From contig CM052816.1 in the NCBI GenBank assembly GCA_028534125.1, positions 37,698,001-37,762,000 of the forward strand: a stretch of DNA of 64,000 bases, in the 5' to 3' direction. Below the pieces are notes generated by a model. That model made no database searches. It was not told the DNA's origin and saw nothing but the letters and a program-made list of their open reading frames with translations. Source of the stretch: Lama glama (taxonomy: Eukaryota). Positions 12,170 through 62,737 of the stretch are shown here, one piece after another. Both the position numbers and the translations under genes were made by a program. Position 1 is the stretch's first letter; the number at the start of each line of letters is the position of its first letter.

Positions 12170-12340
12170 CCTGGAGGGGCACAGGACGCCTAGGAAGTGT
12201 CTGGCTATATGCTGGCACTTCACTAACTTCTCCTACACTGAAGGAGATCCAGGCCCTTACTGTAAGGAGGGAGGAGTGACCATTAGGGTTTGCGGGTTAG
12301 TCACTCGTTGGTTCTGCCTTAACCTTCACTCTAGGATTGC
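12170..12340 (-). pseudogene. Exon-like segment, possibly the 3' part of gene B
   Basis: Long pyrimidine tract upstream on the minus strand and donor CAGG|gtaagg. One-stop frame SNPRVKVKAEPTSD*PANP...QTLPRRPVPLQ. Confidence 0.4.
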
Positions 12341-24646: not shown

Positions 24647-24753
24647 GTGCCTTCTTAGGCAGTACATATGCCAAAAACTGGGATGATACAGAAAAGATCA
24701 GCATGGCCCCTGAACAAGGATGACATGCAAATTTGTGATGTGTTTCATAATTT
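24647..24753 (+). pseudogene. RNU6: Full-length U6 snRNA retropseudogene, the 5' part of a U6/L1 chimera
   Basis: gtgccttcttaggcagtacatatgccaaaaactgggatgatacagaaaagatcagcatggcccctgaacaaggatgacatgcaaatttgtgatgtgtttcataattt aligns end to end with U6. The ACAGAGA box is mutated to ACAGAAA. Confidence 0.95.
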
Positions 24754-24818
24754 AAACTTGAACAGTGCTATATGTCAATCACATCTCAATAAAACTCGAC
24801 AAAAATAATTTTTTTAAA
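24754..24818 (+). mobile_element. L1 3' terminus and A-rich tail fused to U6
   Basis: gtgctatatgtcaatcacatctcaataaaac (AATAAA at 24788-24793) followed by an A/T tail. The whole chimera is flanked by the TSD aagaattgcttctttg at 24631-24646 and 24819-24834. Confidence 0.85.
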
Positions 24819-29713: not shown

Positions 29714-32700
29714 GTAGCCAGTGAAGTTTTCTTATTATTTATCTTGCTTATTTGTTTATCATTTGTTCCCTGCTCCACACACAGACAATGCATACTGAAA
29801 AAGTAAATTCTTTGACATCAGGGTCTCATTGGATTTATTTACTGCTGTATCCCAACTGTCTAGTACCATCTCTCATAAATAGCAAGTGCTCTCTAAATAC
29901 TTACAGATGAAACATATAAGAGATTGAGGGAAGATGGAGAGATGGGAATGTAACATCTCCGTATTCATATGTTCTCACATTTCCATGTCTTCAGGAAAGA
30001 GACTGAAGGTATATGTGTGTATATATATGTAATACAGTATTGTAACCTAGTGTCAATGGAATAGTATCCATTTTTTATAATTTGAAATACGCTCTTTAAT
30101 TTTATGGACAAAAGCAAAAAAGTCCATGCCTAACAGTAAAATGCTATAATCTGTAATATTAACAGATGAGGTCTGGTACAAATTAAAAACATAAATGACA
30201 CACAGATTTTTAAAGATCACTGTTAAAAAGTAAGGAAGAAAACATCTAATTGAACTTCTAAAAAGTTCAAATGAACTGCTTCAAAAATAATACAGTAGAG
30301 AGAATATTTTAAAGTATTTCCATCACTATAATTTAATACCATTAATCAATTAAAAAATCTTCCTTTACATACAAATAATAATAATATCCTTGTAAAATTT
30401 TCCAATGCATTCAAATGTATATTTATGAATTCAGGACCATAAGGCATGCCTGAAGTGCTTTTTGACAAAATAATTTTTAAAAACCCACCTCAATCATCTG
30501 TTGTGCAAGTGAAGTTTTACCATATGAAAAATGCACACACATACACACATGAAGTGAATTTGTAAAATTTTATTTTTTATAATATAAAATTTAATACTTC
30601 CTCATTTATATGGAAACTTTTCATAGTTTTTTTAGATATTGGAGATAATTTATTATGAAACAAGGATTATTTCTTCATGAATGAGTATTAGGAAACACAG
30701 TAAGTATAAATAGTATTTCTCCACATGTGTACTCATAAATCTTAATTATATATATTTAACCATTTGTCATTATATTTGAGGAGAAAAATGAACTATAAAA
30801 CTGAAATCAAACTACAGGATAAATTAAGAAACTTATAAAGCCATATTGTCATTAACAAAGTTTACCTTCTTCCCAACCCAAAGCAAACTGAATTTTACTA
30901 CTAAATTTAGTAGTATAATATGATGCTGTTTTCAGTTTATTTATGTTTTATGGTAGATATTTCCAATAAACCATATGGGTATGCCATATTTGTTTCTTAG
31001 GCAATGTCTGTTGTGCAAAAATGGTTTAGTCTTTTGAATTTACTCATTATTCTAATCAAACAGTATGTCAATTCAGTAAACAGATAAATCATCCAGGATT
31101 GACTTACAGAAGTATTGGAAAGGGACTCAAAATCACTGTGTAGTACTTTATGAGGAGCTGTGTTCAAATACTTATAGAAATGTGAATGGTAGCTATTTGG
31201 CTGAGTTAACAGATGATTTCAGTAAAAATTAGTGAACTACATGTTTTTAAAACTTAGTACTGAACTTCTGTTTTGAATGGTCAAAATGGAAATCTTTAAA
31301 TTGGTCAAAGAATTTTCACATAATAAAACAGATTTATTGGGTATATAACATCTGGCTCATTTTATTCAAGGAGTTCTATTTAAGAAATAAACATGTTTTC
31401 ATGATTTAGAGTGTAGAAAACTAGGAAAAAAGAAAAATATATCTAATGACTGCATTTTATTAAAAACAATATGTCCCCAGTATCTGTTATAAAACAAATC
31501 TATTTACAATACAAATCTGTTTTCTGGTATTTGGAAGTCTAATAAAAAATTCAAGATTATTTTTTCCCTCAAAGCAGAATTCAGTTCTATTTGTTTCTAG
31601 AAAAAAAAAATTAAAGTCCTTTCCTTAGAGTTTTTATTTTATTTAGAGGTACTTTTTCTCCCATCTCTCCTTTTTTTCTTCTAAGTTTTTCTTTTCTTAT
31701 GGATACAACTGAATACAGACTCATTATTTTTGGTACAATTAAAACTACAGTGGTCCGAAGATTTTTATAGAATAGGACTATAGATGTTTGACAATTGGCT
31801 CATGACTCATTCCTTTCATTGGCCAATTCCTCAGTGTTTTAAACAGACATCTATTAGTTGAAATCCCCTGATACTGCACAAAAACATAATACTGAATGAG
31901 CATAAATTGCAAACTTCACTTGACTTTACAGTTTAATAGATATAAAAGAAGTATAACTGTAGCCACAGAGCTAGATAATTACCTTGCTCAATTGTTTTGT
32001 CTGCCAGAAAGCAATCGTTTTGATGACTGATAATGAGACATGTTCTGGTACATAAAAAGTATGTACTCATGCTCACATGTAGGTTGATTGGTAAAGACAG
32101 AATAGCCAAGAGAACTGTGAATGCATAGACTATAAGCTGGAGAAGAAGGCCAATTAATGAATGCAACTGGTTAGGTGTTGGAGGAGTCATTTCAACTCTT
32201 TTTAATCAATTTACATGCTATTAATATTCTGTTATTTTCATGTACTATATGCCCTATTGTATCTTAGGAAGGATCTCAATGTTTCCACATTCATGATATT
32301 ACAAATACTTCAACTTGGAGATGAAAATTTGGGACAGATGGCCATTCAATCAGTATGCAAAATAAGAAAATTTCAATGTAATAAGAGCAAGAGTACTTGC
32401 CAATAACTCATACTCTAGCTTTCCCTGAGTTGACTGAATACAAAGAATAATAAAATGTTAACTGCATTATAATACCAATTACACTAATTAAAACAAAATA
32501 GCAACATTAACAAAAAATAACAAAAGCAACAAGGGAACTTACCCTGAATCTAATATTAAGAGTGCTGATAAATGTGATTTTAAAAAGGTTGTAAAATGTG
32601 AAGATACTTAGAGTGATGATGTGTGAAATGGGAGCTTGGGGGCGATGCTATTCTTATTTCCTTTTAGAAACCTGAATGACTTCATATCTTCAGGGCTGGA

Positions 32701-32926
32701 AAAACTCCATAATTCAGGCCAAGGAGATTTCAGTAATGCCAAGTCAGTAGACAGTGTTTCCAAGGGCAATCCATTGTTTCTTACATCCAGAGGGCATAAA
32801 ATATGGATTAACTTACATGCCACTAAATAATATCAGATGGTCCTCCTGAGTAGAATATTGAAACCATTTTCCATATGTGTAAATTATTCTTTTCATGAAC
32901 AATATTTTCTAAATATTGACATTAAC

Positions 32927-33202
32927 GTTTTTATTGAAGTACAGTCAATTACAATGTGTCAATTTCTGGTGTACGACTCATTGTCCCACTCATGCATACA
33001 CATAACAAATACTCGTTTTCTTATTTTTTTCATTAAAGGTTATTATAAGATATTGAACGTAGTTCACTGTGCTATACAGAAGAAACTTCTAAAAAAATTT
33101 ATTTTTATATATAGTGGCTAATATTTGTAAATCTGAAAGTCCCAAATTTATCCCGTCCCACCCTCTTTCCAGTAACCAAGAATGTTTACTATGTCTGCAA
33201 GT
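32927..33202 (-). mobile_element. 5'-truncated young L1 3' end
   Basis: tttttattgaagtacagtcaattacaatgtgtcaatttctggtgtac...; TSD acattaac at 32919-32926 and 33203-33210. Confidence 0.85.
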
Positions 33203-33902
33203 ACATTAACTTTTTAATTCCTCCTGAGGTGGCATCAACATAAAAACAGTATGAAACACAGGAAAAGTATAATGGGCCAAAAGAGTTAAAAATAATGCTT
33301 AGACACTTATTCCAACCATAGATATCAAACCAATGAACAGAATTAAAGATAAGTGCCTAGAATATACCTCAAAACATGTTAAATATATTTACTTTATTAT
33401 AAAGTTAGTGGGAAGTATATTCATAATTTTGTTTTAACTCTACCAAAGTGTTAATAAGTTTAAAGTAGTGTAGTATATAAATTAATTAAATAATGAAATA
33501 TAAATTAAAGAAGAAAAGAAAAACTATCTGTATATACTATAAAATTGACTATGGTTTTATTCTCATATTAGTGGGAAGAAATGATTATTTGCAAGTAGAA
33601 CAGTAAGTTAATTAAATCTCCAAGCCATCTAAGGGCCTTTGAGTAAGAACCATGGAAATGACCATGATATAACATATTTACTGCTCTATAATGTTTGTGG
33701 ATGATCCTATATCTGTTCTTTACAGTGTCTTGATGTGAGTGGGTCTTCAAAATATTTTTAAATGATTATTAAACATTGTTTTATCATATACTCACTGCCA
33801 TACCTCAAAATCTAAACAGGATGCTTTCATTATTTCCCATTACCCTCACTAAGGAATACTGCAAGAGATATTTAAGTGTTTAGATAAAGAAATTACAGCA
33901 AA

Positions 33903-34442
33903 TGTAGTAGACATTCATTTCCTTCTTTCCTCTTTTTAGCGATACCTCAATTTTCATTCGGTTGTCCAGCCTTATCCACAAGCTCTGTATCTTCAGGATA
34001 AGTTGATTCCCTCAGGTATCTAAGAATGGGCCGGATTTATTTTGGAAGTCACCCTTCCACTTTATTACTTGATGCAGGAACATAAGCCAAGCCAATGACT
34101 GCTTGGTATACTTCTAGCTGCAATTAGACATCAAAGACAGTGACAGAGCAATTAATCTCACAATTAGTCCTCATATAAAAAGAAGTTTGATAGTGTATCT
34201 GGAGGGAAAAAAAAATTCCTTGCTTTTCAAATAAAGCTACTTGAAAAGACAGCATAGGTAAGGAGCCCACCACCACACAGCAAATGGAACATTACAAATA
34301 ACTGCAGAGGATGGGAAGAACCCACTTATTAAACATGCCTCGAGCCAGCTCTATTTCTAGATTAGTAAGGGGAACCTAAGGAGGTTTTTGTTTCTTAAGT
34401 CAGGTCTTCCGTTGCTTGAAACCAATAGTATTCTAAGTGATT
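33903..34442 (+). mobile_element. Old ERVL-class LTR (LTR16/LTR33-like)
   Basis: Starts tgtagtagacatt and ends ...ttcttaagtcaggtcttccgttgcttgaaaccaatagtattctaagtga. Degenerate. Confidence 0.45.
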
Positions 34443-34779
34443 TTTCAGTGTTTGTGAATAGAACCCTTTTTATACTTTTTATAAATGACTAATAATGCCT
34501 AATCGACTTTCTTACAATGTTTCCCCCTCATAGTAGAGATAATTTGTATAAAATAACCTGCTTATCAGTTAGAAGACTTGACAGAATGTTGTAGCTGAAA
34601 CTATTTGCTATAGTACTAGAAGGTCACTTGATGTATGTGTGGAAATAGGGCTATAAGAACAGGTTTGTGGTTATTGCAAGTATTAAAAGTTAATTCCTTG
34701 AATTGTTAAATGTTAAAGCTTAAAACAAGGTACTGGTGGTATCATATGCTACTACATCAAACATAGTTTTTTAATGGAA

Positions 34780-35220
34780 ATCCACTAATTGTCACTAGAC
34801 TAATATTTGCCAACCTTCATGTTTCCATCGGAGCACTCTGGGAAAGTTGTAAGAGCACCAAATCACTCAAGACAATTATACTGCAAAAACACAATTCCAA
34901 AACATCAGCGACAACAACAAAGTTCAATATCTTGCTAATGCTACATGTCCGTCATGGGTGGCTGTGGCTCTGCTCGGTATTTTCTTGATATTGATCACAA
35001 GGTGGTTTAGCAGCCTATCACAGAAATCGTAGTGTTTTAGCAGAAGTAAAAGAAATCTGGATAGCCAAGCGTGACACTTAAAAGATTGTTAAGAAGTGAC
35101 AGTTCACTTTTGCCCACATTTCATTTTCAAAAAGAGTCACATGACCACTCCAGAGATAAGCAGGATGAGAATGTCAAATCCTATCAAATCAGATCTTTCT
35201 ATAAAAAGGGGGAAGGGGAC
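34780..35220 (-). mobile_element. Old MLT1-type LTR fragment
   Basis: atgggtggctgtggctctgctc...cacttttgcccacatttcatt...agtcacatgaccactcc. Confidence 0.5.
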
Positions 35221-36009
35221 ATAAATCACATGGCCAGGCCTAAAGCCAAAGGATCACAGGTGTATGATCCTCCTATAGGAACAATCAAATACATATAATC
35301 AAACACACAGTCCACCACAACCACACCCCCATCCCTTTTCTTATCCTGCTTGTAACCCTTAGCCTTGCCACCTCTATCAGCCTTAGGGAGGTGGAATAAA
35401 TCTGATGCCCATTGCCTCCTTTTGAACCACAATGTGGGGTCCAGATACCGTAGATCACCCACCATCCTGTGGATTCTGACTTTTTCACATAGCTCTATGA
35501 GTTCTGCATGTTCCCTTTTCTGACACCGTTTTTCAGCTCCAGAAACCATTCCTCTGATTCCTTTAGAACTCACATTCTTTTCAAACACATTTCCTGGTAT
35601 CTTGAAACAATTTTCGAAGTGATTCTATGTCTTGTCCCACTTGGAACCTGGCTTTCTCTTGAGGATACTGCTTTCCCTGCTGCCCTTTGAAGCTAGTTAG
35701 TGTTTTCCCTCCCATATCCATTTTATCATTGATGTTTCAGATAGGGCACCTTTCCTCCTTGTTCTAGATTTCTGCATCCAGACCATTTTACTCACTCTTG
35801 TAAACACCTTCCTACACCCAGTGTTGAAGTGCATACCATTGCCTTCTGTGTTTCAGTCATTTCCTACTCCCAGGTGATCTACCTGATAGTTTGAAGACTT
35901 TAGTTCTTTCTTTACTGTCAGTAAATTACTCCAGTTATATTTTGTTTAAATATTCATTCACATGATATTTCCCATACTCTATTATCTCAGTTACTCAATC
36001 AGACATTAA

Positions 36010-36526
36010 TTCACATGCTATTGTGAAGGGATTTTGCAGCTATAATTAAAGTCTCAAATCAGCTGAAATTAAATAAGAGAATTATCCTAGGTGGGCCTGA
36101 CTTAATTAGGTGAGCCCTTAGAATGGTCTGGGCTCTTCCTAATGAAAAAAATTTGAAATGTGAAAAGGATTTGATATGAGGAATATTCTTCATTGCTGGC
36201 TTTAAAGATGAAAGGGGCACATGGTAAGCAATGAAATATAGTCTCTATGAGCTGAGAGCAGCCCCCAAATGACAGCCAAAAAGAATATAGGGACCCCAGT
36301 CCTACAACCACACAGGAATACATTTTGCCAACATGGATGAGTATGTAAGCAGATTCTTCCCTAAAGCTTGTCCAGAACCTAGATATCTGTCCTGTGATAC
36401 CCTGAGCAGAGAACCTAGTCATGCCATGTTTGACTTTCTGACCTACAGAATTGTGAAGGAATAAGTCAGTCTTGTAAGTTACAAAGTTTATGGTCATTTG
36501 TTACATAACAGTGGAATACTAATATA
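36010..36526 (+). mobile_element. MaLR LTR (MLT1D/E-like)
   Basis: aagggattttgcagctataattaaagtc...gaattatcctaggtgggcctgacttaattagg...ttctgacctacagaattgtga...ttgttacataacagtggaatactaatata. Confidence 0.85.
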
Positions 36527-36947
36527 CTAGTAATTCAGTGTCTTTGCGTATAACTCAGACTCAAACCTAGGCTTTCCCAAGAGCCTACATGTTCCCCTGT
36601 GACCTGCTCCCTCAACCCTAAATCATTTGTACTTAATCACCTCACTGCTTTCCTCCTTTACCCTGTGCTTTCCAGCCCATGCTGACTTCTTGACAGTCCT
36701 TGAAATTCTATGAACATCAAGCAAGTTTTGAAACCCGACATTTTTATTTGTTCTTCTTACTTCCTGAAGTATTCTTTCTGAAATAACTTCATGGTTTACT
36801 CCTTCATCAGCATTAGATCTTTTCTCAAATATTACCTCTCAGTGAGACCTTTAGTAGTCTTTAATGTGAAGTTACAACTCCTTTCCCACCTGCAACACTC
36901 TGTATTCCCCTTCACTGCTGTATTTTTTATATAATAGTTATAACCTA

Positions 36948-38620
36948 CAGTTGACCCTTGAATAACATGGATTTGAACTGTGACAATCACTTATACATGT
37001 TTCCTTTTGTTTTGTTTTTCATTGAAGTATACTTTTTTACAATGTTGTGTTAGTTTCAGGTCTATAGTAAAGTAATTCAGATTTTCAGATTCTTTTCCAT
37101 TATACATTATTATAAGATACTGAATATAGTTCCCTGTGCCATATGGTAGGTTCTTGTTGTTTATCTTTTTTATATACAGTAGTGTATACGTTACTCCCAA
37201 GCTCCTAATTTATCCCTCCCCCCATCTCTTTCCCCTTTGGTAACCCTAAGTTTGTTTTCTATGTCTGTGAGTCTATCTCAATTTTGTAAATAAATTCATT
37301 TGTATCATTTTAGATTCCACATATAAGTGACATCATATGATATTTGTCTTACTCTGCCTGACTTACTTCACTTAGTATGATAATCTCTAGGCCTATCCAT
37401 GTGGCTATAAATGGTATTATTTCATTTTTTATGGCCTCAATGCATAAGGCAAATATTAACAAACATGAAAGGAGAAATCGACAGTAGCACAATAATAGTA
37501 GGGGCCGCTAATACCCCCCTTACATTAATGGACAGGTCATCCAGGCAGAAAATCAATAAAACACAGGCCTTAAATAACACAATAGACCAGATGGACCTAA
37601 CTGATATTTTTAGAGCATTCCATCTGAAAGCAGTAGAGTGCACACTGTTTTCAAGTACATGTGGGACATTCTCCAGGACAGATCACATGCTAGGCCACAA
37701 AGCAAGCCTTGCTCAAGTTAAGGAAATGAAAATCATATCAGGCATCTCTTCTGACTACAACACTATGAAACTAGAAATCAACAACAAGGAAAAAAAAACT
37801 GCAAAAAAGACAAACACATGGAGGCTAAGCAATATGCTACTGAACAGTCAATGAATTACTGAAGAAATCAAAAAGGAAATAAAAAAAAATACCTAGAGAC
37901 AAATTAAACTGAAAGCACTGCAATCCCTAACCTATGGGACACAGCAAAAGCAGTTCTAAGTGGGAAGTTTACAGTGATATACGCTCACCTCAGGAAACAA
38001 GAAAAACCTCATATAAACAACCTAGTCTTACACCTACAGCAACTAGAGAAAGAAGAATGAACAAAATCCATAGTTAGTAGAAGAAAAGAGATAATAAAGA
38101 TCAGAGCAGAGATAAATGAAAGAGAGACTAACCCCCCCCAAAACAGAAAAGATTAATAAAAGCTGGTTCTTTGAAAAGATAAACAAAATTGATAAACCTT
38201 TATCCACACTCATCAAGAAAAAAAGGGAGAGGGCCTAAATTAATAAAATCAGAAATGAAAAAGAAGATACTAATGGGACCACAGAAATACAAAGAACCAT
38301 AAGAGACTACTATGAACCACTATTTGCCAATAAAATGGACAACCTCGAAGAAAGGTACAAGTTCTTAGAAAGGTACAGTCTCCCAAAACTGAACCAGGAA
38401 GAAATAGAAAATATATATTTACTATTTTTTAAAATAAATAACTACTACAGTACTACATGACCTGAGTTTGTTTAAATTGAAGGAAAAGGAAGATCTGAAT
38501 TTGTTTGAATTGAAGGAAAAGGAACTGCAGATGTGGAGGCCAGACTGAAAGTTATATAAGGACTTTTGACTGCATGGGGGATCAGCATTCCTAACTCTTG
38601 TGTTGTTCAGGGTTCAACTG
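36948..38620. mobile_element. Tigger2-family (TcMar) non-autonomous transposon split by an L1
   Basis: TIRs cagttgacccttgaataaca (36948) and tgttgttcagggttcaactg (38620), with TA TSDs at 36946-47 and 38621-22. Confidence 0.85.
37002..38415 (-). mobile_element. L1 insertion with 5' inversion: minus-strand 3' end at 37002-37435 plus plus-strand ORF2 segment at 37436-38415
   Basis: 3'UTR and poly-T on the left. ORF 37411-37854 is L1 endonuclease (TIIVGAANTPLTLMDRSSRQKINK...FSRTDHMLGHK) in the opposite orientation. Confidence 0.9.
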
Positions 38621-39526
38621 TATACTATAGTATGGTGATAGTTCTTTACTTAGTTTATTTTCTGTCTTTAGGCACTATAAAAGTAATTTCTTGCTTCATC
38701 AGCGAAGATTTTTTCCTTTGTTAAATGATGCATCTCTAATTCCTAGAAAAGTACCTAGCAAATAAGAAGCATTCAATGCATATTTACACTTAAAATGAAA
38801 AAAAAAATTCATTCTCTTTTCTATTGTGAATCTTGGTGACCTTGGAGATAGTAGAAGGCTAAAGAGAGGTTGAGGCTGTGATAACTAGACTGGGGTTTCA
38901 CCTATTAGCATTTCAATGCCAAATTTCAGACCTGCTCTACGTTTGGGGTAAAGAGGTTCTTTAGTGAACCTTCAATGAAAGAGCTTATAAATAAGGTTTC
39001 ATAATTATTGCTAATAAATACTAGAAGGAATAAAGACAAGGAAGTTTCAGAATTATGTATATAAATTCTATTTCTATGAATACCATCATAATGAGTTTTT
39101 CCATTATACTTAAAATATTTCAGCTCTGATGACTGAACAACATAGGGTGAACAATTCCAAAGCACTGACACTCAAATATAGTATGAAACCTGAAATTCAC
39201 TGCAACCAGTGTTGATCTGTGACACAAATTCTATTTCTTCTGAATGTGCTTTAGCACCTACCTACTTAACTTTCTGGTAGATTAAAAAAATACATGGAAC
39301 CATTGGATGCATAGAACATTTTCAGTTAAACGTTTCCCTCTTCTGCCAACTTCTTATGCTCAAATTTATAGCAGTTTGATATATCTGTATATCTATGTGC
39401 ACATATATGTGTGTATTTTCCTTAAGGATAATGAACTATTGCATAATACTGCTTCTGTCAGGCTTTCCTCAACATTACCACTTCAAGGAATCTTTAAGAA
39501 AGATGCCCAATCCTGAAATAAAAACA

Positions 39527-39567
39527 CTCTCTCTTTCCCTCTCTCTCTCTCTCTATATATATATATA
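39527..39567. repeat. Compound (CT)n(AT)n microsatellite
   Basis: Read directly from the sequence. Confidence 0.85.
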
Positions 39568-41564
39568 CACAATTTTGGCATGTGACAATAATAAACAGGA
39601 ACTTGTTTATCTTCGATTCATATAATGAGTATAGGGCCATGTGATTTTATTACTATGATTATTGAGATACTATTCACCGCTACTCAAAATATTCTTTAAA
39701 AATGACCTTCTACTTAATTTGTTTTTAATGAATGCTCACATGCTTGTCTTCCCTGTAAAACTGGCTAAATTGGTATATATTGCTCCTTTAAATTGTCCAG
39801 GCTTTTAAAAGCTCCTTAGATATGACAAATCAACATTAATCTGTACTTGATTCTTTACGTGTATCTGTGATTCCTTTTTTTCATGCCCTGTCTCAAAAGC
39901 GTTTTTCTTCAACTTGTAATACATGCCATGGGAAGAGACCTGGAAATGAAGATAAGTATTTTGAACTTCTGTGTGGATCAGCCACATTTCTGTTAGTCTC
40001 CACAATTTTGACTTGCTGGTAGAATGAAGAACTGATATGCCAGAAGGTACTACACATAAACCTGCTGTAGTTAGCTGAAAATGCATTCTTTGAAGGCACG
40101 CTGAGATTCAGTTGGCTACAGTGTAATAGAGGAAAAAAGGAAGATTCATTCACACATAAAAAAGCAGTGACTTGAAAACCAAGACAGCTTTGATTCTCTT
40201 TCTGGTTTTCCCACGACTTCTTCATTCTCTCTGTTAACTCTGGAACCGTGCTTTAACATCTCAGTGAAATCAGGAGATTAGACTGTCAGAGATTTTAAAC
40301 TGGCAAACTCTGTTTTGGTTTTGCTTAGTACAAAATTAAGTGTTGTCCTTAAAATAGTCTGGATATATAGTTTTTTTTTTGTGAAAAAAAACATCCGCAG
40401 GTGGAGAGAGTCTCAGTTTCTATTCCTGCCACACGTGATGACTGTGTTTGCTCTCGGAGGGCCACCCTCTCCAGGTGCCACAGTTCTGGTTCTCCTGAGA
40501 GAAGTACAGGGCCCACTTCACTCATCTTGTTACGTCCTAGCCTCTATATATCTGTGTTTGCAACACATAGACAAAATGATCTCGTTAGTCCCTTTCTGAT
40601 GTAATTGTTATGATGTTACGATGATTTTGATTTTTGTTTTGTTTTGGTAATCCTGCAGTGACCTCCTACTTTAGCAAATCACAGCTGACATATATCATTC
40701 CACAGGCTGACACCTTCGTAGTCGCTCCTAGGTATCTCCTTAAACAGAAGGAAATATGTTCAGAGGGTTTGAATACATTTTATTGGGACTTGGTAATGAA
40801 CATGTTCTTAATTAATGGATCGATACAAGTGCCAGTGGGGCCAAAGGGTGAAGGGGAAAGTAATATTTATCCCAAACAGTATCTGAATGTAGAAAACAAG
40901 TTGACGGGAACATTTGACCAGCAAGGGCAGGAGGCCTTCTGCTGGGATGAAGGTTTCAGCTCTTCAGCTGAGTGCCTCAAGCTAGCCTGATGTCTGGCAG
41001 GAATACTAAGTCATAGGGTTAAACTGTTATGTGTTGCTTGATTGAAAATTTTGTGTAATGTTAGCTTTTAGAATAATAATAAAAATTGTAATTTGGCCTC
41101 TGAGATTTATGCAAAATTCCTGACACTTTCCTTTTAGTTTGTGAAGAGGTAGGGGTTAAGGTTATCTAATTCAATATTTGATATGTTTTTAGGGTTATGT
41201 TAATGAGGAAATCACAGAGATGAGAAAAAGAGGAACTAGAATAGTGCTTTGTTATTTTGAAATAGCCTTTCTCCCTTCAGTTAATGCATATATTCAACTT
41301 GTGAGGCAGAAAAAGTGGTAATCCCCTTTCAAAGGAAGAAGCCATGGCACAAAGTGTTACTTTGGTTACAAATATAAACGTTTTTCCCAAATGCTTAAAA
41401 GTATATTACTAATGGTGTCCACCATCCATTGTCCACACAGCTTCCAGACTATTTTAAAAGCTTAATTCAGAATTCAGATTATTATCACTTCCCTGAACAA
41501 AATTTTATTCTCAACGCATTTAGAATAAAATCTAAAGCTCCGCATCATGAGGTAAAAGCCTGTT

Positions 41565-41770
41565 GGTGTTGCTCAGCAGGGAAAGCTGTGATGGTGATTC
41601 CATTGCCATTTTGATAGAACGGTTCTGCATTGTGAGGGTGGTCGCTTGTACTGCATAGTGGTTAGCATCTCAAGCCCCTGGGCACTAAATGCCCACAGAC
41701 CTTCACCCCCATAAATTTTCAATGTCACTGAAGTAGGTGGTACTGCACACCCTCGTTATAAACTCCTGGA
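41565..41770. mobile_element. hAT (MER20/MER3-like) remnant inside an L2 fragment (about 41400-42150)
   Basis: gttagcatctcaagcccctgggcactaaatgcc motif, with L2-like sequence on both sides. Confidence 0.45.
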
Positions 41771-44700
41771 GGTGGGGGGTAGTGGGGACTAACCCCTGTC
41801 AGTCTCCCTGACTGCATCTCCTGTACTCTTTGCCTTGCTTTCTGACTTCAGGTTTTTTGTTGTTTCATTCCTCAAATACACCAAAGTGTTTTGTAGGATG
41901 AGGGTCTGCATTGCTTTGGACATGGCAAGCTCATTTTTATCCTCTCAGCCTAAGCTAAAATTCCTTTTTTTCAGAGTAGTCTTCGCTGATCATCTTTTCC
42001 AAGCTTACTCAGCTCACCCGTGGGCCTTTCTGTAACATCACTTGTATTTCTTCTACTGTTTTTAACACAATCAAAAGCTCATGTCTATTTATTTGTTGAC
42101 ATGCTCCCTGCATTAGCTCAAGCGCAGCATCCGAGCAAGAACCTTTTTCTTTTCATATTGTATCCCCTGGAATGCAATGAGTTCTTTCACTCCTCCTCTT
42201 CCTTTTTTCTCTTTCCTTTTCTCTCTCTCTCCACATACACACACACACAGACACAAACACACAACTCTTTATTTTCAATTTTTTCAAATTTATATTTGAA
42301 ACAAAAACCAGTGTCATCAGTGCAGAAGAATTTTCTGACCACCCAACCTCCATTTTAAATGGTGTACGCAAATAGTTTATAAAGAAATAGGTGCTTAAAA
42401 TTTAAATGCAGGTGAGACTTATAGTATACTAGAGCAGCGACTTGGGTATTAGTTGTGAAGATACCTGGCTCCCTTTTGTGTAAATAAGGCTCACTCAAGT
42501 CTGGTGAGACTTGTGAGGGCATACTATTAGACAAAATACAGTTTTCATGCACTTTCTTTGAATAATTATGGCTACAATGACAGAGGCCAGTACACTTACT
42601 TCAGTGCCAGGCCTCTATGTGACAGGGATGCAGATTAAATCCTTCTACGCTAACACATCCAGTTTGTCCCGCTGTGATGACCTTGCTCCCTCCCACAGGA
42701 GTTTAGAAATTTCAAGAAGTAACTTCTCAGCCATGTGACGATTGTACATATTAAGGATGAGCTATATGTTGGTGCCTTAAAAATACAGTGATACCAGTAA
42801 CTGTGAGTGACTGCTTGGGGGGGATCTTGTGAAGGTATAGACATGAACTTACCCAGCTCACACTTTTCTCTAGTTCTGGCAGTTTATTCTCCTGCTTTCT
42901 TGCTAACCTTTGAGGTAGGCCGAAAATCCTTGAGATCTTTAAGAGCTTTTGGTCCATAAATTATTTCTGCTTTTCTAACATAGAGCCTAGAGGAGAAGCA
43001 GAAAATAGTTTCCCCAAAACCTCATTACCACTAATGTAAATTTTAGATTTTTAACAGCAACATTTATCTCAGTTATTAAGAATTATGTTCTTAAAATGGT
43101 TGTATTTTCATGTAGTTTCACCAACCCATGATTCTCTATTTTAACACACCTTGCCCTTGGTTAACATTTTAAAATTTTGACAGGGCTGTGCAGTTCATAA
43201 AGCATTTCCAAATATATTGCCCCATTTCACTCTCACAACTCTAAGTGCTGCCATTCTTAAGTGCATTTTCCCCAGAATTCTTTTAGGGCAGGATCAGCAT
43301 CAGAGCAGTAGCTACTTCTTTGACCTCAAGTTCTTCTTGCTTCAACTCACCATAACAGATGATTCTTTAAATAAAGCTGTATCTAAATATTTAATCCAAA
43401 CCTAATATTGCCAAAATCTTTTAGTTTTCATAATAGATGAAATAAAATGGGTAATAAGTAAGGGTAATCATTTGCCTGGGATGTTCCTGTTTTCCCAGAG
43501 ATCTGACTGGTATATTATCTGACCCACCCTCTTTCATTTTCCAGTGTATCCTGGCTTGGACCATATATTCTCTGGCACCTAATATTAAATAGTGGAAAAC
43601 CTGCTGAGAGAAAAAGAGGGCATTTGTAGAAAACAAATGATATAAGGTGCAGTACAAGTAAGCCAGAGAAGAAATGAAGATCATTTACAGATTTTGTCTG
43701 AGAAAGTTCAAGCTAAACCATACTTAGAAAGCCCCCGTTTACAGGACTAGTGTACGGCTGGCAGATAATCCATTCAGGTGGTGATCAGAGCGGCACTCTA
43801 GGTCAATGTTTGCTCAAGGCTGTATTGCTTGCGATCAACGTATTAGACAACTTACTCCCTACAACTCCAATCCTCTTCTCTCAGTCTTTTGTTAACAAAC
43901 AAACCTGCCTGTCAGAAAATTGAAGTCAAAACCATCAGGATGAGGCAAAGGGGATTTTACCACTGCTTGCAACTTGAGTAAGAATTCCAAAGACTGGGCT
44001 GGACTCCAGAAATCTGTTGTAGGATAATCACAGAATGGGCTGTCAGATCATCTTTGTTCTCTGCCCCTAAAGCAGAACTGATGGTAGGGCTTTTGCAGTT
44101 GCTTTTCGAGGGTATAAAGAAGACATGGGATAGGAAGAGGTAGAGACCATATGGAGATTCCCTTCCATTGTACAAGGAGCCTAGGGGTGCCCATTCTTTA
44201 TTCAGGGCATTCACACGACTGCTAAGAATTAAGTGACAGTATTCCAACCGTCACACCCGACCCCTGCCTCGGTTCACTGAAGTGAACCAAAGGGGGCATA
44301 CTCCACACTGTCATGTAGTCCTTTGCCAGAAGATGTAAGTGAGCAAATTAAAATGGACAACTTTCAGTGACTTCAGAAGCTGAGGAAATGATGTAAAATA
44401 AAATAGTCCACTGATACTGAAGACCTGAGGATGGCAAAAGCCACACTGTGGTTGAAAGAAATGCTTATGAACCAATATCACAGCAGCTTGAGGCTTTATA
44501 GCTTCTATCAAATATGCTGTGTATATAAAAGCAAAGCTCAGGGTAAGTCCTGGATAAAATTAGAATGCAGGTGAAATTGTCACTCCTTTGTACTCTGTTT
44601 TCCTTCCAGGATCTACTTGTCTCCTCTCTTTCCTTCATATAGTCCCTGCCTTTTTCCTGGGATGAGTTCAGAGCCCTTAACTCATACCCCCCACCATTGA

Positions 44701-45935
44701 CACTGCATCTAATCGCCATCAGGACTGCTTCCCAAGAACAGCACACTCTGAATCTAATACATTGGAGAGCAGTGAGGGAACATTCAAAAAAACACAATAC
44801 CATGTTTTTAGAGCACACTACATTCCTGATTGTTTCATGTCAGTTACATTATTTTTTCTCAAAACAACCGTGTTTAAGTATCATTGTTCCCAATTTATAG
44901 ATTATTTAGATTTATAGCTATTCTCAGAGAGGTTTTTAATAATTTATAAAGGTCATACAGTATTTGACTCAGCACCATCATTTAAGTTTATCTTTCCCCT
45001 TCTCTTCATCAAAACAAGTTTATCGTATCTCTAGCCTTTTTTATTTTTATGACTGGTAAAAGATAAATCTAAAATTATAATTTATTTTAAATTAGGAGTA
45101 TGTTTCACTTAATTTGCTCTACATATTGTAATAGTTAAGTCTTGAAGAAAAAAAATGCCCTTAAAGAAAATAAAATTCAATAAAGTTTATTCATCATATC
45201 AAAATAATAGGAGACATTTTTGAAGGTAGGAAGAATTGAGGTTTCCAAAAATCCCTTGATGTTTTAAGTGCATTTTGACTACCTTAAGTGCATTTTGACT
45301 GAGTGAAGTTTTTAAAAGCTATTGATACATTATGGAATTTATTGTCCAAAAGAATTAAAAGGGGAAAGTTCCGCCTGATTCTAAACTATTTTAAAAGACT
45401 GAAAATATTCAAGTTAAATTCATTTCTATAAAGTAATAAACTCTCACAAAAAGAACAGGTACTATTAATTCTTTTGTATGTGACAGTGAACTAGTGCACC
45501 ACAAAGTAATTTTGTTTTGCACCTATTATTTTAAAAGGCAAAACTTCAAAGAGTCTTTACCATGAAATGCTTTACACCTTGTCTCAGTGTCTGAGCACTG
45601 AGAAAAGGACGACTCCCACTGGAGAAGACGTTTTTGCTGTACTTCTTTCTTTAATGCTGTCACAGATGATCAGAGATAATAAAAAAAGTATTTACCACAT
45701 TATATGCTCTCCATTATGATAGAACTTTTCTATTTGAAAAGTATTGAACATCTGTGAGTTTAACCACAGTCCAGAAACTGTACTTTTCAAAGCCATCTTT
45801 GTTACCTGGTTGGAAAGGGTATATTCCTTGTCGTCGACTTTTTAGGTAACACTTGCACACAGTCTTTGAATTTTACTCCAAGAATTGATTTTTTTATACC
45901 AAACCATTTATATCTCTGAGATAACACTGAGAGAG

Positions 45936-45938
<3 letters not shown>

Positions 45939-45992
<54 letters not shown>
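45939..45992. repeat. (AT)27 microsatellite
   Basis: Read directly from the sequence. Confidence 0.95.
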
Positions 45993-45994
<2 letters not shown>

Positions 45995-46584
45995 CCCAAA
46001 GCAAAGCTAATAAATGTGAAATCCTCTCTCCACACTCAAGATATCAAGGTAAGGAGGATACGTTTGAAAAACTGCTCTAATACATCAGAAAATATAAAAA
46101 TCAATAAGCTATAAAAGCTAAAAAGCTTCTTCAATTTTGTCCCCTTATTGCTCAGTGTAGGTGGCCAGGTCCCGGAGAACAATCCAAGGTTGCCAGAAAG
46201 CCATTATACATCTAGTTGTGTATTTCAGACAATACGTGAAGCTCCGCCAGGAAGGGACAAGTATGTATCTGCCAGAGAACAGGGAGGTCTGAATGGCCCC
46301 TGAGCTCCTGTTTGTTTGATTGAGAGCTGGAAAGTGTGCTTGAGAAATCAGGCAGTAGAGACGGCGTTTTCCTGTCACTTTTGTGTGAAAATGAAGCAGG
46401 TCCAAACAGCATTTTCCTCTTCCTTTTCTTCCTCTGCTATTTTTCAGGCACAGGACATGCAGAGTGCTGTATGTCAGGGACGTTATTACCAGACTAGGAA
46501 GGCAACAAAATGCAGCACCTCCTGCTGAACGAAGCCCGTGCTCCAATCATATAGGGCATGAATATTAATTCTTGCCTGAAAAAT

Positions 46585-47007
46585 TCTTTTTTTTTATTTT
46601 TAAATTTTGTAACTCTTTAAATTAAAAAAAAATTTGTACAATTTTTTAAATGTTCCTTTCCATTTATAGTTATTACAAAATACTGACAGATAATTGCTTA
46701 TTTTCCCTCTGTGGTACAATACGTATTTGACCCTGTCTTACACCCAAGAGTTTGGACCTTCCACACACCTGGTAACCCTGATGTTGCCCCCACCCCCACC
46801 GCCACTGGGAACCACTAGTTTGTTCTCTAGATCTGTGACTCTGCTGCTTTTTTGGTTACATTCACTAGTTCGTTATATGTTTTAGATTCCACGTATGAGT
46901 GAGACATACAGTATTTGTCTTTCTCTGATCTATTTCTCTTAGCATAATACCCTCCAAGTCCATCCGTATTGCTGCAAATGGCAGAATTTTGTTCGTTCTC
47001 ATGGTTG
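46585..47007 (-). mobile_element. 5'-truncated L1 3' end
   Basis: T-rich tail, then ...ttagattccacgtatgagtgagacatacagtatttgtctttctctg...cttagcataataccctccaagtccatcc. Confidence 0.85.
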
Positions 47008-47578
47008 ACACTTTTTAACTGGTACTTTTCCTAGAACATGTATGAGGTATGCAGGTGTCACTAGAAACAGTCAGTGAGGGAGGGACATGGCTAAACAAAG
47101 TCGTTTGAGGCCACAGGTCTCTAAATTTGTTTTCATCATGCATCACTATTCCTACAGTATTTTCGAGTAAATATCATCAATGTCTATTTTTAAATAAATG
47201 CATATGATATACTAATATATGATGTACGTTTAACATAAATGTTAACAAATGTAAATGTAAAGGATTAGATAAAACATGAATACACATAAAAGTTCTCCTG
47301 TCACCGTAAATCACCTTGAATACTGCCCAGGATGTTAAAAACACACGTTACAATGCTTTTCAATATTCTGGTCTGCTGCAAGGCTACAGCCTTTTGACAC
47401 TAAAGTGCTACAAGTCCATCTCCTCCCTGCCTTTTTTTCCCCTTAAATGGGACTGAAGTACAGTGTATAATTAAGTACAGTGTAAGGTCCTTGACATTCA
47501 AGAGAAATCATTTTTATGCCTTTTTTTTTCACAAGGTCTTTACAAAATCTTAAATTTTTAAATATAATCCCAGCATTT

Positions 47579-48141
47579 TGGTAGAATATTGTCAATTAAC
47601 TCTCAGCATTCATTCCCATCTCTTCCTGGTGTGCTTTCCTGTACTACAGGGGTTGGAGATCTATATTCCCTGAAGTCCTTTTCAGCTCAGGTTCTGAATA
47701 CAAATGAGGTTTCAACGATTAGGTGGCCTCCACCAGAATCAAAGCAAATAGAAGAGGCGGATGCTGTCGCACTGATTTGGGTTACCTCCTAGCAATGTGA
47801 CTGTGGACACGTGAAATTTTTTCTGCAAGTGCCCTCCAGTCATGTGCTTCTTGGGTTGTGAGAGACAGTGGCTGTGCACATGGGGCCGCTCCCTGGATAG
47901 CCGCTATAGTGGTGTCTTCTTGAACCAAATTGTTCTAGTGGTGGTTTCTTGCTTCCCTGCCTCTCTGACAGTGATGGAATCAGCAGCTTCCTTAGTGGCT
48001 CTGTTCTGGGGCTCCTGGGGACTAACATAAAGTTCACTCTTTCTGTCCTTCTAATGTGTGTACATACGAGTAATTCACTCTATTACATTACTTTCTGCTT
48101 AAAATGTTTGGTATAATTTCCATTTCTTGAACTCAAACCTG
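47579..48141 (+). mobile_element. Old ERVL LTR (LTR33/LTR41-like)
   Basis: cagcattcattcccatctcttcctggtgtgctttcctgtactacaggggttggag...ctttctgcttaaaat...tttcttgaactcaaacctg. Confidence 0.55.
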
Positions 48142-50939
48142 CCCCCCCCCCAAAAATGCATAAAATATGCACATGACAAGTCGAGAAGCACAAAGCAGCC
48201 CTGAGATGGTTTTCCAGGTAGACCATCAACTTCTTTGTCAATAAAAGCCTTAATTTAGGAGTGATTTAAATTAGTACTTTAGCAAAATTACTGATTACTA
48301 TTTGTCATGCAACTTGAAGGTTGATTATGAATATTTGAAATTTGATGCTAAATGCCTAAATACCAAGCGACTACTATACTTGTAGATTTAAATTTGAAAG
48401 CCCACACAATCTCAATGAGGGAAACACAACGTAATCACAGGAGCACTAAGCCAAAGATGCTCATATAAAACTTTCAGTTGCTATTTTACCATGTTAAGTT
48501 ATACACCAAAACATAATTCTGTTTAATAGTGGAAGAGCCACTTGGCCTGAAAATACATGACGATGCACGGAAATCATGTGCGAAGGTCATCTCCCACCAA
48601 AGCTTCCTGATTTCCATTTCTTTTCATTTTCAGCCAAGCACTCTAATCTTCACTGTGAAAAACAGTCATGTATATCGTTGTAGACTAAATTCACAAGCAG
48701 AGGTTTCAGTATCATCTGGAAGTACTCAACATTTGATTTGATAAGTCGGTAACAGTTTTTAAGGAATATTTGTAAAACAAATGTAGAACTCATTGAATGG
48801 TAGACGCTGTATAGTTAAATTTATCTAATTTATATAACCGAAAAGCCAAATCAATTTTCCTCTTATTTAGCATGAAAATAAAATGTTTCCATTTTTATTA
48901 CATTTAAATATGCGTGTTTATGCCAAAGTTAAAGAAAGATATTTAGAGGCTTAAACAAACAATAATTCTACAGACATTTTATGTAATATATACAGTAGAT
49001 GTTAGAAAAACTCTAAAAGTTTATAAAGTATTTTGCACAGCAATGAGAGACTCAGATATTCCCCTTGAAGTTATGTATATTTCTGCTACCTCCAATTACT
49101 AGAAAGACAGAAAGGTGGAAAATAAATGTGCAGTAATCTCTTATGGTTAAAAGTATCTGAGATCAATTTATCATTACCAAATCAATAATATTACCTTTGT
49201 TTAATGAACACAAAGGGTATTAAAAGGATAATTAGTATAAACTTTTATTTCAATAAATGGAAGATTTAGAAGTACATTCATTATACAACCTGATGTATTT
49301 ATAAATGTAAATACAGGTGGTGATTTCTGTTAGTTTGTGTATCTACTAAAGTGTCTTCTTAGATTGTCACTCTCTTTGTAATTCAGATGTTACATATTAT
49401 CTGGGACTTGCCCGGCCAGCCTTCTGCATTACTCTTTAGAGGCTAATATTAATATAATTATTAAATACACAAAACACACATCTCATGCACACTCACAAAG
49501 TTCTATCATCAAAATACTTGAAAAGTAAGGCCAAGCTTCACTAAGTTATTTATATGACATAATTTACAAATTAAGCTAGAGAGTATATTACACTGATTTC
49601 AACAGATGTAATTAACTCTTCTTTAAATATTTCATTCTTTTCCTAAAAGTTCCATTCCTTTCAGAATCTCCTACATCTTTTTTCCCAACACCTTCTCTCT
49701 AGCTCCTGATTTACTGCACCTTTTGCTCACATTTCTTAACCTTCCTCAGGGTTTGTTCTCATCTATCTCCACTTGCACAGTTTAGCCTCTCCGGACTTCT
49801 CCAGGTCCCCAGTTCTTCTTCCACATCCCTCGACATAGCCTCAAAAATCCAAGTCACCTCACTCCTTAGAAGGCAGAATAGAGAGGTGACTGCAAATACT
49901 AATGGCTTCCAGTGTTTTCCTTGTCACATAGTGGCTGCTCGATGATCTTACAGAATTGATCGGTTTTGTTAAAGGTAATTCTCATAGTTTACCATTATTT
50001 AATTCATTGGAGAGGAGACAAAATGAGTGGTTAAAGTTAGTGTGTAATGTTTACAGCCATTAAATAGCTTCATTTTTGAAATAGGTATTTCCTCCTGGGC
50101 ACGAATTAGCATTATGCACTTGCCACTGTATGAGTATCTGCTAGCACTGGGTCTGATTTGGGATAAAGCAAGCTATGAGGAAAAACAGTCAAATGCTTGG
50201 ATAAGTACAGAATTAATCTTAAGTGCTATACTTTTAAATTTATCAAAGGGAAAAATAGTGGAAGAGGTGGAGCTAGTATGAATGAGTAAAGTTACTTTTT
50301 AAAATTGATGAGGTACATGTAATCAGTAGCAAGGTGTAAACTTTGAGGAAAAATAAAACAAAAACATTAAGCAGACGTCACTTCCCTGAGGTTGCAGAAT
50401 ACTGTTGTTACATCTCCTCTGCTGTTCTTCCTTTAAGGTTATCAGTGATACCTTCACTGCACTTTGCCTTTTTGAAAATGAATAAATGGCAGCGAGAGGG
50501 TGAAATGAACAGTAAAACTGTTGCCAGAATCTGAATCCTTAGTACAAATACAGTAGCTACTGGTTCACTAAATTTTAAACTCAAAAATAAATTTACACCG
50601 TAACACAAATGTTTAAGCAAATACTGATTACCAAAGTTTGCTAACAAACTCAGAAAAAGATACTATTTGGACCAGGACTTAAAGAAGTTAAAAATATGGG
50701 TAAATTCTAAAAACACCTCCACCCAATTCTATACGTGCTTTTAAAGTTGCGATTCTCCTTAAACTCTAACTAGCAACTCATTCTTTCCCCTTTTATCATC
50801 TAGAAGAAAATATTATTTAATGGCGTAGCATTAAACAGTGATAAATTAAATACCTCCTACACTCTCACACTAAGTTTTTGAACCCTGCTTTTTATCCAGG
50901 CCTCTCAAGGAAGATACAGGGTTTTTCCTTAGTCACTGC

Positions 50940-51130
50940 AGGACCATGGGAGAGACCAGAATGGCTTTAGATCCAGTTCTACCATGTAATAAATGGCTTT
51001 AAGCAAACTGCTTCTGTGAACATACAATTTTTACTCAAAACATCATAATGATAATGTCTTTCTTATAGAGAATTGAGGGGTATTAAAAGAGATACATGAA
51101 AATTGTGCCCAGTAGTATCAAATATAGAAT
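50940..51130 (+). mobile_element. MIR fragment
   Basis: atccagttctaccatgtaataaatggctttaagcaa...tcttatagagaattgaggggtattaaaagagat. Confidence 0.5.
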
Positions 51131-52679
51131 TGATGGGTCTATATTTAAAATTCTCTTCATCTTCCTCCCATAATAAAGACAGTAAAACAAATTTTAAAAA
51201 TAGCTATCAGTATCCACTGCTAATGTATATCTGCAATTGTTCAAGCCATCCTTTTCTAGTTAAGAGGAAGGGCATACAATATCAGAGTTTCTGTGCCCAG
51301 TGAACTTAACTAAAAGAATGGCGAGAGTAGCAGCCAGCTGTCCTGTGCGACCACCTTTAACTGAACTCCCATAACCCCACATCTCTCTGCAGGATATCTA
51401 CTCTCATGGGCTAAGTTCTCCTATTTCTTCAAAACTAGAGACAAAAGAAGTTATCATTGTGCTGTTTCTCCATAAAACACAATATAAAGACTTCAGTGAT
51501 TACAGTTATTGTTCAGACATGGTTCTTTCCAGTGCTCGGCCTCAGCCTTATTTCAGGCATTCATGTTCAGTTTGTCAGGGTCTGTTACTGCCACTGCCTT
51601 GGCCATCTTCAGATTTAAAGCTCTATCCCCATTTCTGATGACCAGTTTTATTATCCACCTCACTTATATTGGCTGTCGAATGATTTTCTTCATTTATTCA
51701 GCAAATGTCTACTGATCAGTTGTGACATTCCAGAGAATGTGGTAGATTCCAGGGATTTAGGAGTGGGTAAGAAAAACGCAAGTAGAAAGGGTTAATGAGC
51801 ATCTGTAAATGGACTGTTCAGTTGCAAAACGTAGGCCACTGCTGTGTAAGGGAAGTCAGAGGCTGCACTGGTTCTGAGAACTAATGGTTTGGAAGTTTGG
51901 TGAGGAACCACAGAGACTGCCAAGGTTATTAGAAAAGCCACAAATATATTTTTGAAAACTGACCGACAAATACTGTAGATGGCTCAAATAGAATTGAAAA
52001 AAATGATATTAGAGTTGTATCAGTCTACCATTCCAAATATTTCTGCAGTTTTTTTTTAAGTATTTACTTTTTTAGTGCAGGAAAATGGATTAAAAATTGT
52101 AGTATTTAACCAGTGTTGTGGGTTGCATGATAAATACAGAGGAAGGATACAAGGCTGTCATTTTGAGACTATGAATGAGATGGTAGGCCAACTCATCACC
52201 AGTCTGAGTAGGAAATTAGATTAAGGTGATCATATTTTCTTGGAGAAAGTTGTGGATAAAAGCACAGCATATCATGATTGATTATAAACTTAAAAAAGAA
52301 TGACATTTATTAATATTGAAGGTTTTGGTCACAAAATGTGGTACTAGAGTTTAAAATGTTAAAAATAAATTACACCCAGGTGATAATGAAGTTCAGAATG
52401 TGGCTCTGTGCTGGGGTTGATGATTTGTGATGGGGCTTTCTGATCTTCTTCACTAGTAACTGCATCGTAACTTGATTAAATCTCTACTTTTACATGATCA
52501 TTCCACTCCCTAAAGTTCAGATCTTGACCATGTAAGTATTATATTACTTTACATAATGCTGGCTCTTTCTGGTAAGTGTAATTACCTATGTCTTCCTCTT
52601 CAGTTATGTGTTTAATCAACCAATGCTTAGCATTACTCTGCTAGTCACTGGCAGAAGATTAACATATAGAATAAACCCC

Positions 52680-52850
52680 CATGAATTCCTGACCTAGTGT
52701 GGGATGGAACTAGTTACTGGTCTCTCAGGGTCTCAGTTACCTTATCTGTAAAATCAACATCACAGGATTGTTGTAAAGACTAGATGAGCTGATCAATAAA
52801 AAGTGCTTGGCATCATGCCTGGCATATTGTAAGCATGTAAAAGTAGTTAA
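52680..52850 (+). mobile_element. MIR SINE
   Basis: ctctcagggtctcagttaccttatctgtaaaat...cacaggattgttgtaaagactagatgag...gtgcttggcatcatgcctggcatattgtaagc. Confidence 0.8.
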
Positions 52851-53148
52851 AGTTAATATTCCTGGCATGAGACTGGCAGGGGTCATTGTGCAGAAGCAGC
52901 TGAGTAGACGGTGTGTTCAGAGAATGGCAGAAAGCCTGATAGGCTACAATGTAAGACAGACTTGTTATATAAACTCATTATAATGTTAGTGCAACAAAAG
53001 TAATTGGTCAAATAAATATGTTTTGATAAGTTTTACTAAGCACTCCAAAGCCAAATCTAAATTTTTAGATTTTGAATTCATTAGTCATTGTTCCTTTCCA
53101 ATAATTTAGGTAAATAAGAGCAGATCATATGTGTAGATTTAGGTAGGG

Positions 53149-53150
<2 letters not shown>

Positions 53151-53182
<32 letters not shown>
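53151..53182. repeat. (GT)16 microsatellite
   Basis: Read directly from the sequence. Confidence 0.95.
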
Positions 53183-53190
<8 letters not shown>

Positions 53191-60080: not shown

Positions 60081-61339
60081 ATTCCTTTGGAGAGATTATG
60101 CAGAAGTCAGATCTGGTCTTTGTATTTCAGAGGTTTGGGTTCCATAGAGGCAGCTTAAATCTACAACTGAGAGAGTTAATGAGCTCAGCCATTGCAGGTC
60201 AGAAGTTTAAAAGTGACAGAGAAGTGTCTGGAGATGGCTTCATGATACAACAAAAATCTGAACCCAGAAGAATGGCATTTGCACAGTCTGACAGCAGCCT
60301 TGGAGGAGGAAAATCCAGTGCATTGGAAAAAGGATTACTTTGAGGAGACCTCTCAACAGAGCGCGCCAGACAGGATCTATTTCAGTAGTGCGTCTGAAGA
60401 ATAGCCAGCAAGTCAGGTGGATTATCAGCACTCTTGTGCTAATCCTCCTGTTACAGTGTGGAGTAGTTCGTCTGTATTTTTAGAAGCTGTCTTCCAATTA
60501 AGAGATGATTTACAAAAAACAATGCCCTGTACACGCTTATGTCCAAATCACTCTGAGAAACCAAGAGTGAAAAACAAAGAGTATTGGCCACAAGAAGTTA
60601 CTTTCACCATCCGGAGCTAAGTACCAATACTACAGGGATGGTCTAGAACGAATTAATGCAGCTTCAGCGGTTAAAAAAAAAAAAAAAAAGAGCATAGAGA
60701 GCTGTTAAATGTAAGTTAATTTTCAAAAAAGATACATTTCATAATCACAAAGATACTCTTTCACAGGAAAGAGAAAGCAGTGAAGCATCTCAAGCTAAAA
60801 ATAAGAGTTTTTTGTTTAAAGAAAAAGATCACTCCAGTTTAGTTTAACAAGAAATAGAGAATGATTAGCCTTCGTCTTTTGCTTTAGAGATGATTATCAT
60901 CATGACGATAGACAATTATTTAACAATGAAATGTGGCTGACGTTGTTTTAGGCTTTATGAATTCGCAAGTTAATAAAAGCTAGTGGTTCTGAATGAATTT
61001 ATCACAGGGGTTGGGGAGGGTTAAGGAAAAAACAGTAGCATATGAAATAATTAGCAGTAGGTATCAAAGAGATACAAGCATAACTGTTATCTCACTTTAC
61101 TTTTTTAGAATGTTATTTTTTTTAAATCATAGAAATATGTGCTGCTTATGATGGATAAAAGAAATTGTACAAACCCTCTGTATAATCTCCTTCTGATTCT
61201 CTGATCCTACCAACTGTAGTCATCAGACTCCCTTATAGCAAACACTGGGGCCAGTCTTGTCACTAGTCAAGGTCAATGTAAGGAGTGTTAGGTGCATAAC
61301 TTTATGACAAACTTTAACATAAGCACTGATGATTTTTTT

Positions 61340-62522: not shown

Positions 62523-62737
62523 ACAGCTGCTGTAACAAAGTAATAGACTGGATGACTTATACACAACATTTATTTTTCACAGTTCTGGAGGCTGGCAAGC
62601 CAGGCTCATGGGAGCTTGTAGATTCAGTGTTTGTTTTGGGTCTGCTTCCTAGTTAGCAGTCTTTTCACTGTAACCTTACATGGTGGAAGAGGCAAGGAGC
62701 TTTCTTCAAATCATTTTTATAAGAATATTAATTCCAT
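62523..62737 (-). mobile_element. MaLR LTR (MLT1A/B-like) interrupted by an L1
   Basis: gctgctgtaacaaagtaatagactggatgactta...cacagttctggaggctgg...tttttataagaatattaattccatt. Confidence 0.75.

Follow-up and report, generated by a model that had tools for sequence, protein, structure and literature searches.

Exon-like blocks on the reverse strand

The window analysed here, a stretch of 64,000 nucleotides of Lama glama DNA (assembly GCA_028534125.1, contig CM052816.1, positions 37,698,001 to 37,762,000), is AT-rich mammalian DNA with a GC content of 0.28-0.42 that holds no long intact gene-like frame outside its L1-like remnants. On its reverse strand, eleven exon-like blocks are spread over 13.4 kb and separated by gaps of 77 nucleotides to 5.4 kb. 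An original prediction, made from the letters alone, had described these blocks as a fossil spliced gene, probably a lost paralog of the CCDC162/DUF4549 family. They are read here as what is left of a protein-coding gene with several exons, probably a CCDC162-like paralog that would have been lost in place long ago and would code for nothing now, and the probability assigned to this reading is about one half. In the following list, percentages are ranks among all AG or GT sites of the window, scored with simple splice-site frequency matrices.

Block 1, 43961..44250, minus strand: 97-codon open frame with a ..CKQW end and a moderate donor, gtaaaa; closest internal acceptor at 44013; no Pfam match
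Block 2, 42853..42986, minus strand: 134 nucleotides with one frameshift (one extra base); acceptor and donor within the top 0.2% and 0.8%, respectively
Block 3, 40017..40074, minus strand: 58 nucleotides; weak acceptor and GC donor; 77-nucleotide gap to block 4
Block 4, 39859..39939, minus strand: 81 nucleotides; acceptor in the top 1.5%; two in-frame TGA
Block 5, 39110..39170, minus strand: 61 nucleotides, ..PYVVQ..; acceptor and donor both weak
Block 6, 33663..33714, minus strand: RYRII..MLY within a 65-codon open frame; weak splice sites
Block 7, 32612..32845, minus strand: EDHLI..WHV..QW/LPL.. with two frameshifts; acceptor in the top 4.3%
Block 8, 32309..32350, minus strand: IEWPS..QVE; no AG within 14 nucleotides of the start; ordinary donor
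Block 9, 31983..32198, minus strand: ELK-stop-LLQHL..FWQTKQLSK, 72 codons with five stops in one frame; poor acceptor, donor in the top 1.9%
Block 10, 31811..31873, minus strand: YQGIS..RNWP; acceptor in the top 8%; 109-nucleotide gap to block 9; non-GT end atgag
Block 11, 30866..30900, minus strand: short, donor in the top 2.6%; start uncertain

The description given in the original prediction is accurate, and the fossil gene that it proposed is plausible but unproven. When the minus strand is translated, all 14 of the peptides quoted occur between 43971 and 31820, three of them lacking one end residue that is supplied by the splice junction. Blocks 1-5 had been said to join in phases 2, 0, 1 and 1 with one frameshift, and the junctions are indeed compatible: the first (phase 2) reads TG/gtaaaa..ctctag/G, the second (phase 0) gtaagt..tttcag and the fourth (phase 1) gtaaag..tttgag, and the third (phase 1) is possible only with a GC donor (gcaagt, 40016) that the earlier account does not contain. 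Two donors had been called mutated, and both non-GT sites, ctaagt (32611) and atgag (31810), are present. The second half of block 7 lies within a 74-codon open frame that closes at ctaagt, and a strong internal donor at 32816 (top 1.1%) provides an alternative end for this block. The upper limit of the interval had been placed at 44247, which is a codon close to the start of the 97-codon frame ending in CKQW.

Given the frames proposed, the reading frame is disabled: blocks 1-5 together carry two stops and a frameshift, block 7 has two frameshifts and block 9 has five stops. A functional gene was rejected on account of these stops and frameshifts. If the blocks represent a gene, it is not a processed retrocopy, a possibility that was rejected because the blocks are spread over some 13 kb with intervening sequence. 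Block 2 is the best exon-like piece of the series. Between blocks 1 and 2, a further exon-like block on the minus strand (43528-43600) carries a very strong pair of splice sites (acceptor 14.3, donor 8.7); it lies outside the original model, is phase-incompatible with it and gave no credible Pfam match.

Evidence for and against a lost spliced gene

Among the approximately 22 splice sites of the blocks, 6 rank within the top 2.6% of window sites and a seventh within the top 4.3%, and the paired sites of block 2 (top 0.2% and 0.8%) are prominent among them. A search for the best stop-free, frameshift-free and phase-compatible chain of five exons in five-kb tiles on both strands points in the same direction, as the tile over blocks 2-5 holds the top chain score of 24 tiles (92.1) and also of 120 sliding tiles (mean 68.6, standard deviation 7.6). 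In 10 of the 12 stretches compared, the GC content exceeds that of the flanks (P=0.05 versus 2000 random open-frame sets, a value uncorrected for the selection of the blocks by the original reader). Three stops are found in the proposed frames versus 13 and 13 in the two shifted frames, a weak indication given that open frames were chosen. From 30.8 to 34.0 kb, seven strong donors lie on the minus strand versus one on the plus strand.

Other results weigh against the reading of the blocks as a lost gene, both in the statistics of the blocks and in the homology searches. The five exons of the original model reach a summed splice score of 37.8, which is exceeded by the best chain in 24 of 24 tiles (58.9-92.1), and the top chain of the best tile has only the acceptor of block 2 in common with that model. 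Ordinary acceptors precede block 3 (45%) and block 5 (54%), the donor of block 5 ranks at 59%, each of the four AG around block 6 (RYRII) ranks at 43-72%, and block 8 has no nearby AG. The amino-acid composition is unremarkable (P=0.175 for a coding-like composition versus 2000 random open-frame sets of equal length, likewise uncorrected for the selection of the blocks). In the 30.8-34.0 kb interval, strong acceptors number 4 on the minus strand versus 10 on the plus strand, and no minus-strand excess of splice pairs or base skew is present over 38.9-44.3 kb. The five quoted CCDC162-like motifs are, taken singly, at chance level, with matches expected 1.5-700 times among the region's 13,498 codon positions, identities having been counted by eye. 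That the tidy exon architecture of the blocks exceeds chance is thus mostly not shown.

These figures bear directly on the explanation that no gene was ever present and that short open frames with AG and GT ends, in neutral AT-rich intergenic DNA, were picked out and fitted to a known protein. The better chains in every tile, the abundance of open frames of 50 or more codons (approximately 3 per kb per strand), the number of motif matches expected by chance and the blank homology searches described below all favour it. On the other side stand the paired sites of block 2 together with several further strong sites, the position of the best of the 24 tiles on blocks 2-5, the GC excess of the blocks over their flanks and the weakness of homology searches on short decayed pieces. 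This absence of any gene is a real possibility, to be placed at appreciably less than an even chance.

For the homology searches, Pfam was queried with 12, 19 and 19 single pieces of 20-97 decayed residues, including pieces of a second exon-like series upstream, and matches below approximately 12 bits were filtered by HMMER. No match to DUF4549 and no credible Pfam family resulted from these single decayed pieces, and six sub-cut-off matches (E 0.03-0.18) to unrelated families were rejected. The large protein libraries were queried with blocks 2 and 9 of this series, each singly. Block 2, read through its frameshift, gave 7 candidates in a 5.8-billion word search covering proteins of 78-2000 residues, none of which reached E<=10. 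For block 9, a word search among proteins of 715-2275 residues gave 8 candidates, none confirmed, and phmmer against 1,835,955,588 proteins returned 0 at E<=0.001. No usable match to block 6 was obtained in Atlas, four queries of the PDB (blocks 6, 7 and 9 and an open frame of the upstream series) gave only a chance match at E 4.7, and pattern matches to blocks 6 and 7 in metagenome contigs (593 and 287, respectively) included none that was confirmed.

The reach of these searches can be gauged from a control in which Pfam named 1 of 4 L1-like remnants of the window and missed the other three, which are plainly L1-like. Considering this control and the single, short and decayed queries, the blank searches are weak tests for a distant relative. 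They do argue against a recent loss with a closely related annotated ortholog no longer than approximately 2,000-2,275 residues.

Family assignment and chromosomal position

Human CCDC162P and mouse Ccdc162 are taken here to correspond to C6orf183 and to belong to the DUF4549 family (Pfam accession PF15082). The putative likeness of the blocks to this family consists of a small number of short motifs that would share their order and approximate spacing; the motif order and the residue spacing across blocks 7-10 presumably fit CCDC162. The CCDC162 label is tentative: no search gave a sequence-level match, and the likeness, if real, is distant. As to the core of the CCDC162/DUF4549 claim, the results neither show nor refute it.

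The position of the window was considered through the genes that presumably surround it on the same contig. By a provisional placement, the first exon of CAMK4 is assumed to precede the window by 4.15 Mb and the start exon of CHD1 to follow it at 3.70 Mb, with SH3TC2, CD14 and SLC22A4 at 28.6, 22.5 and 16.1 Mb before the window and SPEF2 at 41.6 Mb beyond. As CAMK4, CHD1, SLC22A4, CD14 and SH3TC2 are genes of human chromosome 5, the window is taken to be a counterpart of that chromosome. A proportional placement between CAMK4 and CHD1 suggests that it probably matches the gene-poor NUDT12-EFNA5 stretch. SPEF2 is located at human chr5:35.8 Mb (PMC6886504 supplementary table). Among the 107 chromosome 5 entries of Data S1 of the same study, none falls between 93.6 and 122.4 Mb.

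Synteny with human 6q21 was not found: CCDC162P is located at chr6:109.24 Mb (PMC6886504 Data S1), whereas the provisional placement puts the window among human chromosome 5 genes. If the blocks are CCDC162-like, they would therefore be a paralog and not the ortholog. A true CCDC162 ortholog that was moved or recently broken in camelids is very improbable. It has no computed support, the surrounding genes (again by provisional placement) belong to chromosome 5 and not to chromosome 6, and a recent ortholog would be expected to share many exact 5-residue words with annotated mammalian Ccdc162, none of which emerged from the two word searches with blocks 2 and 9 (proteins of 78-2000 and 715-2275 residues) or from phmmer with block 9.

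CCDC162P is described in PMC7555810 as a unitary pseudogene in human, for which mouse and rabbit have a coding ortholog and rat has none, and mouse Ccdc162 is listed there among testis-high genes and is active elsewhere too. The proposed remnant would share with CCDC162P the status of a unitary pseudogene, which the latter has in human. Further parallels are two unitary pseudogenes of old gene losses in PMC6886504, the crescent remnant and TMEM274P, which are intron-retaining, in-place remnants with stops, frameshifts and splice decay, as proposed here; unlike these blocks, for which none was found, both have a named coding ortholog.

Proposed history and significance

Under the preferred reading of the blocks as a lost CCDC162-like paralog, they would be the exons of one spliced gene that once stood at this locus. 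After a first disabling hit, the gene may have drifted, accumulating stops, frameshifts and splice-site decay, and L1 and other repeats would have split it at 33.7-39.1 kb and replaced the DNA below 30.8 kb. The loss would be old, since other mammals should still have closely related annotated orthologs had the gene been lost recently and in camelids alone. Its putative likeness to CCDC162 would suggest that the ancestral gene had a probably testis-biased role.

The remnant would at best be a unitary pseudogene not reported before, if it is real, which is unproven. No paper containing 'DUF4549' was found in the literature searched, and the parts available of the literature on CCDC162, C6orf183, Pdzph1, the evolution of RGS22/RGSL1, the NUDT12/EFNA5 gene desert and camelid gene loss contained no report of the locus. 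The portion available of the PMC10195156 supplement held no entry for the terms sought, and the family is not named in the main text of PMC3296468 as far as this was available. A real remnant would represent a second, lost member of an uncharacterised family whose known member is itself lost in humans; it would point to repeated loss of the CCDC162 family in mammals and would mark where a living gene might be found in birds, reptiles or marsupials. As the CCDC162/DUF4549 family has no known function and no new mechanism is involved, the gain is limited to a catalogue entry and a lead.

The upstream series

A second exon-like series, which is probably the 'gene A' of the original prediction, lies on the same strand at 45806-55120 and comprises the following pieces.

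55120-54952, minus strand: exon-like
53359-53233, minus strand: exon-like
47990-47690, minus strand: exon-like
46546-46145, minus strand: exon-like, a 133-codon open frame
45926-45806, minus strand: exon-like

This series presumably resembles proteins of the RGS22/RGSL type. No family was matched in Pfam or the PDB, a word search with the 133-codon frame gave 86 candidates, none confirmed, and the single match of this frame in Atlas (0.76) remained below lead level. A single-sequence AlphaFold model of the frame had a predicted local distance difference test (pLDDT) score of 36.6 and was excluded from any fold search.

The presence of this series raises the explanation that the blocks at 30.9-44.2 kb do derive from a fossil spliced gene, but from one that belongs to another family, or that they form the 3' end of the upstream series. 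Same-strand exon-like blocks do carry on upstream, approximately 1.6 kb from block 1, and no piece reached DUF4549 in Pfam; no piece matched any other family either, and the proteins that the two series putatively resemble are different. This explanation is improbable. A broader proposal would place two adjacent same-strand fossils in the CAMK4-CHD1 stretch, one at 30.9-44.2 kb from a CCDC162-like paralog and one at 45.8-55.1 kb from an RGS22/RGSL-like gene, both lost early in mammals, absent from human pseudogene lists and intact, if unannotated or unnamed, in non-placental vertebrates. This two-gene proposal is tentative and, as a whole, less likely than not.

Sequencing and expression data

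The words of 38700-44400 are present at 0.87-0.89 in five sequencing runs from two studies, one run being possibly the source of the assembly. Since these five runs carry so large a share of the words, the DNA is considered real, and an assembly artefact was rejected. In three RNA runs from a single study of the reproductive system, the same words are present at 0.23-0.32. Such shares exceed what spliced exons alone could supply, because blocks 1-5 make up approximately 7% of the interval when block 1 is taken to begin at its internal acceptor. The signal could derive from genomic DNA or unspliced RNA and was counted as no evidence of expression, as were the small shares (0.06-0.14) of six more runs.

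Repeats and other features of the window

The DNA around the blocks had been called otherwise featureless, which is inaccurate, as 33.7-39.1 kb is read from its sequence as carrying L1-like and other repeat remnants of putative identity. Ten rows were returned by a tandem-repeat scan, and none overlaps the exon-like blocks. Repeats and further features of the window are listed below.

37000..38430, between blocks 5 and 6: putative L1-like remnants with an open reading frame at 37411-37854; limits approximate; no family named by Pfam
62717-63139, minus strand: remnant of an L1-type reverse transcriptase, matched by Pfam RVT_1 at E 0.0002
Approximately 21.6-24.6, 27.8-29.2 and 63.5-64 kb: other L1-like blocks
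24647-24754, plus strand: U6 small nuclear RNA copy within L1-like sequence (77.5 bits, model positions 1-105 of 105)
60110-60500: protein-looking stretch, slightly richer in GC, in which position 60131 of the plus strand resembles an acceptor; three frames gave no Pfam match
12170-12259, minus strand: isolated exon-like block

The U6 copy, the only RNA family detected by Rfam in positions 1-39700, is likely a U6 retrocopy. The isolated block at 12170-12259, 18 kb below the eleven blocks, carries a strong pair of splice sites (acceptor 12.1, donor 9.9) and could be either a further remnant or a chance occurrence.

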